Below, in pieces: positions 9,001 to 12,000 of a DNA stretch of 64,000 nucleotides (position 1 is the stretch's first letter; each line of letters opens with the position of its first letter). The position numbers were made by a program. The stretch is taken from the NCBI GenBank assembly GCA_963845185.1, contig CAWJRG010000009.1, positions 704,001 to 768,000 of the forward strand. The letters run 5' to 3'. The DNA is from an uncultured bacterium (lineage in GTDB: Bacteria; Oederibacteriota; PGYV01; CAWJRG01).

Positions 9001-12000
9001 AAATTCATTTATTAATTCCAAAATTTACTGCATAAAAACACATAAAACCGATCAAATTGTTAAACATAAAATTCTTTCATTTTTTTGAAAATAATGCTTG
9101 ACAAAATAGTAATTACTTTGTATACTCAAAGTAATTACAGAGCAAAAAAAGAAAGGAGGTAAAACATGAGGCTACAGGTTGTTGAGATTGGAAATTCGAA
9201 AGGCATCAGGATCCCGCAGGCAATCCTGAAGCAGGTGCATTTTGAAAATGAAGTCGACCTTGACGTGTCGGAAGGAAAGATAGTCCTGCGCAGGCTTGTG
9301 GACCCGGATTACATTTTTGGTTTTGAGTCAATCGCAAAGATGGACGACCAGAGCATTCAGAGAATGCTCAGAAAGGTCACCAGGACAGACCTTCTGATTG
9401 CGCTTATCGACGCGGACAAAACCGTAAAAGAAGCAGTATTCCGGAACCTGTCGGAATCGGCCAGGAATTACATCAAGGCAAAAGTGACCAAGCTGGAGAA
9501 AGGCAACGCGCGCGACCTGATGATTGAGAGGAGCCGTAACATGATCAGCGAAGCTTTCGCAGAAATGATCAGGGAGTAATGCATAGTAATTCGAAGGAAA
9601 CAAAATTTCAGCCGCGTTTAACGCGGCAAAAAGGAGGATGTCATGGCAGTAGAAATTTCCGAAGCAGGAAATCTAGAAAGCTTGAGGTTTACGGGTGTAG
9701 TGCTGGAAAGCTTAAAAGCTGATAAAAAAGTTGAAGTTGTTGAAGTTGAAGCGGAAGAGAAAGTTGTTGTGCGCAGGAATATCGACAGGAACTTTAAAAC
9801 GGGTTTTGAATTACTCTCAAAAAAAGAAGACGCGGACATCAGGAAAATGCTGAACAAAGTGGACATTTTAGACGTTGTTACTGCGCTTGCAAATGCCGAC
9901 AAAACTGCAAAGCTTGCCGTTCTCAGGAATCTACCTCCAAACCTCAGGGAATATGTAGAGATCAATATACTGATTGTTGAAAAAAAGGGGATACACGGCA
10001 ATGAAACCGAGACATGCAGGACAAAGATAAGCGAAGCGTTTGTGGAAATGCTGTATGACGTGCATGCTTCAAGCCCGTCAAACGCGGTAATTTAAAGACA
10101 CAATAAATAATCCGCTTTTAACGGCTGGATATTTATTAATTTAAAGATATAAACAATAAATTCTGTTTAAGCAAAAAAGGTTATTATTATACAAACAGCT
10201 TTAAACAGGATTGCGTGATACTTATCTCTGCAAAGAAATTTTCAATTAAGAATTGCCAATTTTCAATTGCCGTAGTAAATTGATAATGAAATGAAAATTA
10301 TTAATTATTTTCAATTATCAATTGAGGTGTTGGTTTTATGAAAAGGCAGACCATCAGTGAGATTAACAGGGAAATAAAGCTAAACCCGGATAACCCGGTG
10401 CCTTACAACAACCGCGGGAATATTAAAGCCATGATAGGAGACTACAAGGGAGCTATTAATGATTATAACAGGGCAATAGAGCTTAACCCGAAGTATGCTG
10501 AGGCTTATTACAGGCGCGGAACCGCTAAACATAATTCAGGAGATAAACAGGGCGCGCTTGAGGATTTAAACAAAGCCGGAGAACTGGGATATAAACAGGC
10601 CTATGATGAAATTAAGGAAATTCAAGGTGAGTGAAAGTTTTCAATATTCAACTGAGGAGAGCGCAGTGTGCAAACATAGAAGTGCAGAATATGCTGGCAA
10701 ATACAGGCCGGTTTCCTATATATGACTCCCAAAAAACACCTAAATAAAATAATCGGCCCTATTTATGTCATTATTTTGTTTTTGATCCCTTATATATTAA
10801 TCGGTGTTTTTGGATGGGAAAAAATATGCATCAGGCTGATTTCGGTTTTTTTGTTGTCAATGACTGCGATTATTTTTTTTGTTTATTGGAGTGTGATGCC
10901 TTATCCGGGCGCAATGGATGTCAATGATTTTCCGAAAGAACAGCAGCCAATTAAAACCAAAAAAAGGAAGGTATTTAGGCCTTATGTGCGTGTTTTGCTG
11001 CTGGGATTATCTGTTGCCATGGCATGGGGTTTTATGCCATTTTATAAAGATGTAGTTTCAATTGTTTTTGGGAAACAGGGCTATGAAACAATAAGGGGTA
11101 AAATAACCAACGTGAAAATTCTTTTTGACAGCGCGTTCATTTTCAAAAGCATTCAACTTAACGGCAATAAGGATGATACCTATGAATATTTATATTCGTT
11201 TTCGGGCCGGATGCCTGTCGGCGCAGAATATGAGTTTATTTTCCTGAAAAATTCAAAATTTATTGTCGATGATGTAAGGCTTGGACTGCAAAATGGGAAA
11301 TAAATCCGCTGCGGAAAAGTATTTTAATTCCGGTAAAACAAAACACAGAGCAGGCGATTATAAAGGCGCGATTGAGGATTATAACACGGCAATTGCTCTT
11401 GACCCGGATATTGCTGAGGCTTATAACAACCGCGGAAATGCCAAGTATGATTCAGGCAATAAAATGGAAGCCATTAAAGATTATGATAAGGCCATAGAGC
11501 TTGACTCGGATCATGCGGTAGCTTATTACAACCGCGGTAATGCCAAAAGTGCGCTGAGCAAGCCTGATGAAGCGATTAAGGATTATGATAAGGCAATCAC
11601 TCTTGACCCGAGTTTTGCAGATACTTATAATATGCGAGGCATTGCCAAGGAGGAGATGGAAGACCATAAAGCCGCAATTGAAGATTTTGACAAGGCAATA
11701 GGGATTGCACCAAATGACTCAAAGGCTTTAGCCAACCGCGGGGTTGCTAAATTTAATTCAGGAGACTTTAAAGGCGCAATTGGAGATTTCGATAAGGCAA
11801 TAAGGCTTGACTCGGACAATGCAAGGATTTATACCAGCCGCGGCACAGCTAAAAATATGGCAGGCGATAAAAGAGGCGCTATTGAAGACAGTACCAAAGC
11901 GATAGAGCTTGACCCGAAATTTGCGCCTGCTTATCGCAACAGGGGGAATGTTAAAGGCATGATAGGCGACTTTAACGGTGCGATCAAGGATTATGACGAA

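Follow-up and report, generated by a model that had tools for sequence, protein, structure and literature searches.

A conserved two-domain family combining a MazE/AbrB-type N-domain with a FliG-derived C-domain, and a putative double-box operator at its own promoter

Introduction

In AbrB, Abh and SpoVT of Bacillus, a DNA-binding swapped hairpin is followed by a C-terminal domain for multimerisation or sensing. AbrB is a tetramer in which this C-domain joins two DNA-bound N-domain dimers, and SpoVT carries a GAF domain. In Bacillus subtilis, the repressor SinR has an oligomerisation domain in common with its small antagonist SinI. A dedicated anti-repressor of AbrB, AbbA, is described in a bioRxiv preprint (10.1101/2024.08.12.607668), and another paper describes AbrB sites as highly variable (PMC4022651). 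For the flagellar rotor protein FliG of E. coli, a third paper (PMC6079164) gives R281, D288 and D289 as the primary residues of stator contact, the MotA R90–FliG D289 pair as critical for stator assembly, and K264, R281, D288, D289 and R297 as the conserved charged residues of the stator interface.

The locus reported here lies in the window, by which we mean the whole stretch of 64,000 nucleotides that was analysed. Gene 1 joins a MazE/AbrB-type N-domain to a domain derived from FliG, and is followed by a paralogue, gene 2. It has the general layout of AbrB, Abh and SpoVT, and modelling predicts that its C-domain, too, self-associates. The C-domains of AbrB and SpoVT are, however, unrelated to that of gene 1; the variable AbrB sites (PMC4022651) differ from the sharply defined palindrome of the gene 1 family; and the AbrB regulon is global, whereas the apparent regulon of gene 1 is one promoter. 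The likeness to SinR/SinI is that an adjoining second gene, gene 2 or one coding for a FliG_C-only protein, shares the fold of the C-domain and is devoid of a working DNA-binding domain. The folds of SinR/SinI are unrelated to those of gene 1 and gene 2, such a second gene is found in only nine of 32 loci, and an antagonist role for it would follow by analogy.

Results

Gene organisation

The two open reading frames reported in the first-pass annotation of this DNA are present, each preceded by a ribosome-binding site (Table 1). The GH5 cellulase gene that it had placed next to them is directly upstream of the locus, and also upstream of gene 1's own promoter. This promoter is near the sigma-70 consensus, with a 17-nt spacer between its hexamers and 11 of 12 consensus positions matched. 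The hairpin between the two genes was ruled out as a terminator or attenuator on account of its missing U-tract and its z score, and it is not a canonical terminator; the one past gene 2 probably marks the end of a two-gene operon. The locus, at 713 kb of its contig (C9), is indeed far from the flagellar genes: the matches to FliG, FliM, MotA-like and rod proteins all lie at 264–397 kb of the same contig, at least 316 kb from gene 1.

Table 1. Coordinates of features at the locus, counted from the first letter of the window
Feature	Position	Strand	Remarks
GH5 cellulase gene	7681-8898		directly upstream
Third exact GTAATTAC box	8966..8973	.	about 140 bp upstream of the operator; three of the genome's six intergenic exact boxes precede gene 1
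-35 hexamer TTGACA	9098..9103	+	TTG at this place conserved in most loci
Putative operator	9109..9138	.	two palindromic GTAATTAC boxes, 9109-9116 and 9131-9138
-10 hexamer TATACT	9121..9126	+	between the two boxes; also read directly from the sequence
Ribosome-binding site of gene 1, AAGGAGG	9153..9159	+	read from the sequence
Gene 1	9166..9579	+	137 aa; residues 1-45 (9166-9300), MazE/AbrB-type domain; residues ~50-137 (9313-9576), FliG_C-derived helical domain
GC-rich 7-bp hairpin between gene 1 and gene 2	9611..9627	+	without U-tract; fold of the 69-nt stretch z -1.5, not significant
Gene 2	9643..10095	+	150 aa; paralogue of gene 1; acidic degenerate N-domain, conserved C-domain, C-terminal extension
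AT-rich terminator-like hairpin past gene 2	10102..10136	+	-10.2 kcal/mol, z -2.84; 2 of 200 shuffles fold equally well

A misnamed two-domain family

The combination of a MazE/AbrB-type N-domain with FliG_C that had been assigned to gene 1 was reproduced with Pfam and by sequence matches to solved structures, in which FliG C-domains covered residues ~50–117 and MazE/AbrB proteins residues 1–50. The Pfam match to FliG_C (PF01706) spans residues 50–135 (E 1.2e-14; 54.9 bits, cut-off 23.3) and that to MazE_antitoxin (PF04014) residues 6–43 (E 1.1e-3), its 19.3 bits being under the cut-off of 24.7. In gene 2, FliG_C matches residues 54–110 (E 3.7e-5; 24.4 bits, the same cut-off of 23.3). The NCBIfam fliG equivalog scores 47.6 bits, far under its cut-off of 226.7.

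At E <= 1e-3 we recovered the reported 252 homologues among 274 candidates. Most of the 120 that are listed are 137 aa long and 58–81% identical, and all match PF01706, as had been claimed; PF04014 was matched by seven of them instead of eight. They are named 'FliG' or 'antitoxin MazE' in their sources. Across distant phyla the identity is 52–81%, with one outlier at 38%, and the operator is kept alongside. No longer, fused relatives appeared among 387 candidates, in itself weak evidence, and the ESM Atlas returned the family's own cluster together with two clusters of small FliG_C-only proteins and nothing else. Sequence comparison thus bears the family out as genuine, tightly conserved and made of two domains. 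The suggestion that it is undescribed agrees with our finding that no Pfam or NCBIfam model is its own, and a search of open-access papers and bioRxiv found none on a MazE/AbrB–FliG_C fusion or a GTAATTAC operator.

The N-domain and the MazE antitoxins

Members of the family have a nearly invariant N-domain (IGNSKGIRIPQAILKQ). In the PDB the family profile found 7d2n_E, a protein of the AbrB/MazE/SpoVT type, at E 3.7e-5, with MazE chains following at ~2e-3. The swapped-hairpin fold is an obligate dimer of strand–helix–strand–strand topology; in this domain the AF2 monomer has strands at residues 2–8, 30–35 and 38–44 and a helix at 18–22, but with a pLDDT of just 54–65. The closest N-domain relatives outside the family are MazE proteins of 81–85 aa from Bacteroidota and other MAGs (loci L035–L083), with a PemK/MazF gene next in each; the two nearest, L045 and L038, pass the PF04014 cut-off (32.8 and 31.4 bits). 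Over the N-terminal 41–67 residues they are 33–52% identical to the gene 1 family and have the motif IGNSKGIR(I/L)P in common with it. In both groups a GTAATTAC box lies in the promoter immediately 5' of the gene, and the gene heads a short operon. All 24 MazE/MazF promoters examined hold GTAATTAC-like boxes, and 18 of the 24 have two such boxes 3 nt apart. The same N-domain thus co-occurs with the same box in the sequences of MazE/MazF loci.

The two groups differ in three respects. MazE has an acidic toxin-binding tail where the gene 1 family has a folded FliG_C-type domain; the boxes of MazE/MazF are 11 bp apart, whereas those of the gene 1 family, at a distance of 22 bp, lie on either side of the -10 hexamer; and a toxin gene adjoins mazE, whereas no PemK/MazF gene follows gene 1 or its homologues. 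The genome of the window, which is 99.4% complete, has no match to PemK/MazF (PF02452), and the defence-system models of PADLOC gave no match except generic ankyrin models. Since its nearest N-domain relatives are true MazE antitoxins with the same box, the most fitting reading of gene 1 is that of an autorepressor which acts on the small operon it belongs to.

A putative operator around the -10 hexamer

Both boxes of the putative operator lie within a perfect 12-bp inverted repeat (100% complementary), the arms of which flank the -10 hexamer. They are 22 bp apart, start to start, and therefore about two helical turns apart. The pattern GTAATTAC-N14-GTAATTAC, placed 5 nt past the -35 hexamer, reaches at least 13/16 in 27 of 32 upstream regions, a mark reached by 0.18% of shuffles; these regions belong to Spirochaetota, the Goldbacteria/FCPU426 order and two single MAGs, of Ignavibacteriales and of Bacillota. 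In four loci (L015, L021, L019 and L027) both boxes deviate, yet they stay exact reverse complements (8/8 versus 6/8 as direct repeats). Of the five regions below 13/16, one (L020) is cut by a contig end and the others (L023, L024, L028 and L033) have diverged boxes despite unchanged N-domains.

With all spacers of 0 to 30 allowed, the 3.5-Mb genome has a single 16/16 double box, the one in the promoter of gene 1, and no second double box above 14/16 was found there at the 14-nt spacer. Comparison in this way establishes the candidate operator as conserved and as unique within the genome, and what is new is a double box around the -10 hexamer that is conserved with the family and built from the box of MazE/MazF promoters. 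The other loci show no excess of additional upstream boxes (three found versus 5.2 expected). The three intergenic single boxes elsewhere in the genome precede genes for an NHL-repeat protein, GcvT and an AAA ATPase; no shared theme was seen among these genes, and the count equals the chance expectation.

The C-domain: FliG ancestry and predicted dimerisation

The C-domain was modelled with a pLDDT of 82–92, and the PDB matches found by Foldseek at probability 1.00 were FliG chains only (1lkv, 1qc7 and 8ucs_H; E ~1e-3, rmsd 5–7 A). It is about 28–33% identical to the organism's own FliG, and passes the FliG_C cut-off of Pfam. The homology, which covers the stator-facing part of FliG, starts with the MFXF hinge motif ahead of the six-helix C-terminal subdomain, which we take to be C-alpha 1-6, and the fold of this subdomain is common to both. 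FliG has three domains (N, M and C), is encoded by a separate gene, and is 332 aa long in this organism; gene 1, with its 137 aa, has neither FliG_N nor FliG_M, and its C-domain has a 2-residue insertion past the torque helix and a shorter C-terminus. In a tree, the gene 1 family did not group with FliG of the host phyla but formed a clade of its own.

The first-pass annotation had suggested that this domain binds free MotA stators or competes with FliG. In the columns of K264, R281, D288, D289 and R297, the FliG of this organism reads K, R, E, D and R, respectively; in the gene 1 family the stator-contact charges are lost or reversed. None of 59 members is acidic at the D288 or D289 position, the latter being K or R in 44; none is basic at the K264 position, which is I or V in 57 and falls within the predicted dimer interface described below. 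Basic residues persist at the R281 position in 45 of the 59 (the protein of the window has S) and at the R297 position in all 59, the latter only if the 2-residue insertion is allowed. As far as the alignment can tell, the C-domain has lost the stator-contact charges, and binding to MotA in the manner of FliG is not borne out.

The same annotation had named, as a finding that would speak against its own proposal, a FliG_C fold that serves as a dimerisation module, and complex prediction favoured this outcome. Two copies of residues 47–137 scored 0.48, the best control 0.00. That mark was reached by 20 of 30 proteins solved as same-chain pairs and by one of 23 solved as single chains, counts that are approximate because our own alignment was used in the dimer prediction. 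The runs agreed in at least 93% of contacts, and the partner pLDDT was at least 83. E121 and R124, invariant in the family, fall within the predicted interface, as do I120, S123 and N125, which are nearly so. Preferential conservation of the interface was not seen, either in the family (mean column identity 0.71 versus 0.73 for the rest of the C-domain) or in the paralogues. Homodimerisation of the C-domain is thus a prediction of the model; as the predicted interface is no more conserved than the rest, another conserved surface, which includes the former torque helix, is left unaccounted for.

The paralogue

Gene 2 is 34% identical to gene 1; its identity is 40% at the predicted interface versus 44% elsewhere. 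Paralogues of its type nest inside the regulator clade (96/91) as one group (92/85), and R2, K12 and K22 are lost in them. On these comparisons, gene 2 is a lineage-specific duplicate in which the basic DNA-contact residues are gone and the C-domain is kept. A match of gene 2 to MgtE_N was weak and below the cut-off (E 0.04).

Neighbours and carriers

The genes that recur downstream of the regulator in the 32 loci code for ankyrin, small FliG_C-only, dienelactone-hydrolase and membrane proteins. An ankyrin-repeat gene of ~122 aa follows in 13 loci (two of them weak), a second FliG_C-like gene in nine (eight by tblastn and L008 by Pfam), and a dienelactone-hydrolase gene, at 9–16 nt, in six. 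A metallo-beta-lactamase-fold gene, at 12 nt, and a CNNM-type transporter were each seen in a single locus. In six loci no recurrent downstream gene was found within 1.6 kb, L008 with its Pfam-detected FliG_C-like gene being one of the six, and several regulators stand alone. Small FliG_C proteins linked to these operons form a clade (99/98) separate from the regulator C-domain (96/91).

Control of polysaccharide-degradation genes had been proposed from the GH5 neighbour and from a second tandem pair in front of GH62. We found that pair, followed by GH62, in L005. A glycoside hydrolase neighbour occurs only in these two of the 32 loci, however, and the GH5 gene of the window is upstream of the promoter that holds the only perfect double box; neither the link to such genes nor their control by gene 1 is supported. 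No flagellar gene was found near family members in the neighbourhoods examined (32 loci).

All 31 other carrier genomes match PF01706, 30 of them on an open frame of at least 298 aa at E 3.9e-21 or better; 24 of the 31 have a canonical FliG match (E ~1e-44 or better), and the Ignavibacteriales carrier lacks a full-length one. In the phylum of the window, FliG is present in eight of eight carriers. Within the order, 22 of 24 genomes have FliG and eight of 24 have the family; with FliG present in almost the whole order, co-occurrence carries no information.

Discussion

We favour, with moderate confidence, the reading that gene 1 is a self-contained autorepressor. Its N-terminal swapped-hairpin domain would recognise the palindromic GTAATTAC, and the two boxes would bracket the -10 hexamer of its own promoter, the second covering the transcription start expected near 9133, so that the bound protein would block RNA polymerase. 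It is the position of the boxes alone that points to repression rather than activation. The C-domain, an old and diverged copy of the FliG torque subdomain, may link two DNA-bound N-domain dimers into a tetramer, by analogy with AbrB. Gene 2 could form mixed oligomers with gene 1 and weaken repression, as SinI does with SinR. The output would be the genes transcribed from the operator promoter, which differ by lineage and in the window comprise only gene 2. The regulator's only visible targets are itself and the paralogue, which leaves it without an evident physiological output and suggests that some function exerted by protein contacts is missing from this picture.

In a second explanation, a protein partner is bound by conserved residues that lie away from the dimer interface, those of the former torque helix among them, and capture of the regulator lifts repression. 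Candidate partners would be the co-encoded FliG_C-only protein, the ankyrin protein and gene 2, and the operon would report the free partner pool, much like SinR/SinI or an antitoxin and its toxin. The second FliG_C-like genes and the ankyrin-repeat genes after the regulator are consistent with this, as are the equal conservation of interface and non-interface residues and the descent of the N-domain from antitoxins that act by partner binding. We nevertheless regard it as unlikely, though the best of the alternatives: no partner is universal, six loci have no recurrent downstream gene within 1.6 kb, several regulators are alone, and the small FliG_C proteins are a clade apart from the regulator C-domain.

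Sensing of a small molecule or a cation such as Mg2+ by a FliG_C/MgtE_N-like domain, which would free the promoter of a hydrolase or transporter gene, appears more doubtful still. The dienelactone-hydrolase, metallo-beta-lactamase-fold and CNNM genes make up the usual layout of a local repressor with its enzyme, and the MgtE_N match of gene 2 points the same way; against this, that match is not significant, CNNM occurs in a single locus, and the downstream genes (ankyrin, membrane protein, hydrolases, none) are too diverse for one ligand.

The proposal of the first-pass annotation that the MotA stator or the rotor is a docking site for the FliG_C part, so that the motor state sets the amount of free regulator, can be given very little credence: homology to the stator-facing part of FliG, the presence of FliG in most carriers and the residual basic positions speak for it, but the acidic positions and K264 are gone, co-occurrence does not discriminate, one carrier lacks a full-length FliG match and no flagellar neighbours were seen. 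A variant with an altered, all-basic interface seems to us just as far-fetched. Here R/K at 281, 289 and 297 of the torque helix would dock on an acidic patch of rotor FliG or on acidic MotA residues, and the captured regulator would leave the GTAATTAC operator; if true, the motor would be physically and directly coupled to a promoter, and its state would set the transcription of a small lineage-specific operon (ankyrin, FliG_C-only, hydrolase and membrane genes).

Since the motor-to-transcription link is without support, the wider importance of an autorepressor of this kind is moderate until its input signal is found. The family is a case of domain exaptation, a flagellar rotor torque subdomain having been grafted onto an antitoxin-type DNA-binding head. 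It also points to a recognition code, in which the IGNSKGIRxP hairpin would pair with the GTAATTAC box both in MazE antitoxins (11-bp spacing) and in the gene 1 family (22-bp spacing). Such a code makes the DNA specificity of this MazE/AbrB subfamily testable, and may provide a compact orthogonal repressor–operator pair. Finally, the names 'FliG' and 'antitoxin MazE' are corrected for these proteins; both mislead counts of flagellar or toxin–antitoxin genes in metagenomes.

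Promoter, operator and regulon of gene 1

The two tandem reading frames claimed in the first-pass annotation, gene 1 and its paralogue gene 2, were borne out. The sigma-70 promoter of gene 1 matches 11 of 12 consensus positions and lies 40 nt 5' of the start codon. Its -10 hexamer exactly fills the gap left by the two arms of a perfect inverted repeat, GTAATTACTTTG and CAAAGTAATTAC, and the 8-bp palindrome GTAATTAC is present in both arms. The two operator boxes are 22 bp apart from start to start (approximately two helical turns), and the expected transcription start falls within the second box. 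We therefore favor, with some reserve, the reading that gene 1 encodes an autorepressor: N-domain dimers would occupy the two boxes, a C-domain dimer would tie them together, and the bound protein would occlude the -10 region and transcription start, resulting in repression.

Coordinates of the features in the window and in loci from other genomes (L-numbers)
Feature	Position	Strand	Remarks
-35 hexamer TTGACA	9098-9103	+	sigma-70, near-consensus
-10 hexamer TATACT	9121-9126	+	17 nt after -35 hexamer
Inverted repeat, 12-bp arms	9109-9120 / 9127-9138		perfect
Gene 1	9166-9579	+	137 aa; GGAGG-type ribosome-binding site
Gene 2	9643-10095	+	150 aa; GGAGG-type ribosome-binding site
Region of hairpin after gene 1	9607-9629
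Gene 2 3' end	10068-10090		codes C-terminal extension
Transposase	5981-7615	+	544 aa, IS-type DDE (DDE_Tnp_1_6 + DUF772)
GH5 cellulase	7681-8898
Metallo-beta-lactamase-fold gene	12341-13012	+	about 2.2 kb downstream of the pair
Extended regulator frame	L033:8001-8600
MazE/MazF pairs (examples)	L043:7900-8570; L045:7900-8560
Small FliG_C-only gene	L084:3400-3660	-
Small FliG_C-only gene	L085:3343-3639	+
Small FliG_C-only gene	L086:3277-3633	+

The gene 1 promoter carried the sole 16/16 double box with a 14-nt spacer in the 3,496,445-bp genome (runner-up 14/16), and also its sole perfect double box at any spacer of 0–30. Exact single boxes numbered 69 versus about 90 expected. Six were intergenic under a crude ORF mask: three in front of gene 1 (8966, 9109, and 9131), the others preceding an NHL-repeat protein, GcvT, and an AAA ATPase, which share no common theme. 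Extra upstream boxes were not enriched in the other loci. Given the single perfect double box and the lack of themed extra sites, the gene 1 protein looks like a strictly local regulator. Since its only visible targets are itself and the paralogue, with no evident output, we regard an unexplained function through protein contacts as a serious possibility.

A one-genome-per-species scan yielded 31 full-length loci (L004–L034) from Spirochaetota, MAGs labelled Goldiibacteriota or FCPU426, one Ignavibacteriales MAG, and one Bacillota MAG. With the window counted, GTAATTAC-N14-GTAATTAC was matched at 13/16 or better in 27 of 32 upstream regions, 5 nt past a -35 TTG(A/C); 0.18% of 150-nt shuffles reach 13. 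The five regions below this level were L020, truncated by a contig end with the second box still visible, and L023, L024, L028, and L033, whose diverged boxes read GT-N4-AC. Four loci have two deviant boxes that are still exact reverse complements (L015 and L021, GTGATTAC and GTAATCAC; L019, GTAACTAC and GTAGTTAC; L027, GTAATTAT and ATAATTAC), scoring 8/8 as inverted repeats versus 6/8 as direct repeats. As L015 and L021 are closely related, these amount to approximately three events.

The N-domain and its putative DNA box

Pfam MazE_antitoxin scored 19.3 bits on residues 6–43 of gene 1, under the cut-off of 24.7, and NCBIfam has no dedicated model for gene 1 or gene 2. Residues 1–45 of the family profile matched the AbrB/MazE/SpoVT protein 7d2n_E (E 3.7e-5) and MazE chains in the PDB. 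We reproduced the earlier homologue figures, 252 of 274 candidates passing E ≤ 1e-3; among the 120 listed, nearly all have 137 aa and 58–81% identity, and source databases label them 'FliG' or 'antitoxin MazE'. The N-domain is the best conserved part of the protein (mean column identity 0.77, 59 sequences), with G9, N10, S11, G13, R15, P17, L21, and Q23 invariant in 59/59. In L033, the regulator frame extends to 200 aa, or as a 419-aa ORF, into a dienelactone-hydrolase gene, probably through a frameshift, an assembly error or a fusion.

In the remaining 49 loci of the same scan the match was confined to the N-domain. When 17 were opened, 16 had an 81–85-aa gene followed by an overlapping 107–111-aa gene; L042 had a 79-aa product and no such gene downstream. 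Pfam assigned MazE and PemK/MazF to the four pairs scanned, with the toxin alone scoring in L080. All 24 loci chosen among the 49 for their complete flanks had a box at least 7/8 like GTAATTAC directly upstream, and in 18 of them two boxes lay 3 nt apart (11 bp start to start). Because these loci were picked by protein motif, without a DNA criterion, the hairpin sequence and the DNA box recur together in two different gene contexts. This pairing is the strongest argument for the predicted recognition, in which the N-domain would read GTAATTAC. L035–L083 are MazE/MazF (PemK) pairs, mainly from Bacteroidota MAGs, in which MazE has an IGNSKGIR(I/L)P hairpin; the boxes at the 24 promoters examined look like a conserved antitoxin operator code.

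The design of gene 1 is of a known kind, the AbrB/MazE-type autoregulator; its novelty lies in the C-terminal module, in how sharply the operator is defined, and in the recognition code common to the family and MazE antitoxins. Our search of open-access and bioRxiv literature found no paper on a MazE/AbrB-FliG_C fusion or its operator.

Fold and predicted self-pairing of the C-domain

Residues 50–135 of gene 1 matched Pfam FliG_C (E 1.2e-14; 54.9 bits, cut-off 23.3), and in the PDB the family profile picked out FliG C-domains (E about 6e-9). The homology begins at the FliG hinge, ahead of the last six helices, where the organism's own FliG has MFVFDD and gene 1 IFGFES. In the AF2 model the C-domain had pLDDT 82–92, and its confident PDB matches were FliG C-domains only, including the MotAB-bound chain in 8ucs.

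Two copies of residues 47–137 were predicted to pair (score 0.48 versus 0.00 for the best control), with at least 93% of contacts common to the runs and partner pLDDT of at least 83. The pairing mark was reached by 20 of 30 same-chain-pair structures and 1 of 23 single-chain structures, counts that are approximate here because an author-made alignment was used. The predicted symmetric interface (residues 74–82 and 115–134) contains invariant E121 and R124, near-invariant I120, S123, and N125, and the hydrophobic replacement of FliG K264. Against this pairing, the interface was not more conserved (0.71) than the remaining C-domain (0.73), and so the C-domain probably has another functional surface.

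Gene 2, possible relief of repression and origin of the family

Over its full length, gene 2 shares 34% identity with gene 1, and it matched Pfam FliG_C at residues 54–110 (24.4 bits). Only two other proteins resembling it were found in a collection of 5.8 billion sequences (74% and 49% identity); the contig of the 49% protein equals in length that of a gene-1 orthologue with 77% identity. Gene-2-type proteins all retain the C-domain and a common C-terminal extension, have lost hairpin R2, K12, and K22, have an acidic N-terminal region, and form one group (92/85) within the regulator clade of the window's order. This makes gene 2 a conserved duplicate without the basic DNA-contact residues; we infer that it may act as an antagonist of gene 1. 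The 3' end of gene 2 is similar to the hairpin region that follows gene 1 (74% over 23 nt), perhaps a remnant of the tandem duplication.

For the relief of repression, mixed oligomers with this paralogue, or capture by another protein partner, are a tentative and rather unlikely route; a ligand or ion is less probable still.

A maximum-likelihood tree of the approximately 90-residue domain (50 rows), to be read with caution as the domain is short, placed FliG and its paralogues in one clade (98/97), regulator C-domains with gene-2-type paralogues in another (96/91), and all small FliG_C-only proteins in a third (99/98), joined weakly to the regulators (67/23). The divergent Exilispira sequence (L032) stood on a long branch outside the regulator clade. 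The Ignavibacteriales (L011) and Bacillota (L026) sequences were nested in spirochaete regulators (100/99). Their operons have spirochaete gene order (ankyrin in both; in L011 also a membrane protein and a small FliG_C gene), which suggests horizontal transfer or a binning error.

Organisms related to that of the window carry small stand-alone FliG_C-only proteins (86–118 aa; L084–L086), which the window's own genome lacks. L084 and L085 are syntenic, with an ABC-F-like ATPase and, by eye, a gene like a PHP-domain protein as neighbours. The operator was absent at all three loci. By eye, the position of FliG R281 is still basic in all three, and that of D289 still acidic in L084 and L085. Atlas clusters of such proteins had 142 and 52 members, mostly from Spirochaetota.

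Stator residues and flagellar co-occurrence

According to PMC6079164, the FliG residues held to contact the stator are primarily R281, D288, and D289 and secondarily K264 and R297, and the pair MotA R90-FliG D289 is critical for stator assembly. We mapped these residues through the ungapped match of Salmonella FliG 231–288 to profile positions 48–105 and by alignment to the organism's own FliG, where the five columns read K, R, E, D, and R.

Residues of 59 family members at FliG stator positions
FliG position	Residues in members
K264	I or V in 57/59; basic in 0/59
R281	R or K in 45/59; S in the window protein
D288	acidic in 0/59
D289	K or R in 44/59; acidic in 0/59
R297	R or K in 59/59 only with a 2-residue insertion allowed; otherwise D or N

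Judged from these residues, the canonical stator interface is gone from the family C-domain. The earlier proposal of FliG-like stator docking finds no support in the residues at D288 and D289, and we consider it highly improbable that capture of the regulator at the motor lifts repression.

Of 99 species genomes from the window's phylum, 8 carried the family, all within the window's order (8/24); FliG was found in 73/99, and in 22/24 of that order. PF01706 was matched in all 31 other carrier genomes, among which the Ignavibacteriales MAG had no full-length FliG match. As nearly all relatives are flagellated, co-occurrence of the family with FliG is indistinguishable from shared ancestry. The window's genome has FliG, FliM, a MotA-like gene, and six rod or hook-type matches at 264–397 kb of the window's contig. 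Flagellin_N (PF00669) and Flagellin_C (PF00700) gave no match in this genome, rated 99.4% complete; a divergent flagellin, a gap in the assembly or a true absence may account for this.

Gene neighbourhood

Genes downstream of the regulator in 32 loci (same strand, within 1.6 kb)
Downstream gene	Loci
Second FliG_C-like gene	8/32, plus L008 by Pfam
Ankyrin-repeat gene, about 122 aa	13/32 (two weak)
Dienelactone hydrolase	6/32
Small membrane protein	4/32
Unknown 243-aa protein	2/32
Metallo-beta-lactamase fold	1/32
None of these	6/32, including L008 (FliG_C-like gene by Pfam)

The glycoside hydrolase neighbours reported previously held for the GH5 of the window and the GH62 of L005, and were absent from the other loci of the 32. 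The GH5 gene lies upstream of gene 1, outside its transcription unit, and the GH62 gene after the pair. A transposase gene stands directly 5' of the GH5 gene, so the adjacency of GH5 to the regulator may be recent. The metallo-beta-lactamase-fold gene downstream of the pair is a homologue of the gene directly after the L028 regulator (BLAST cluster, Pfam), which may be a coincidence.
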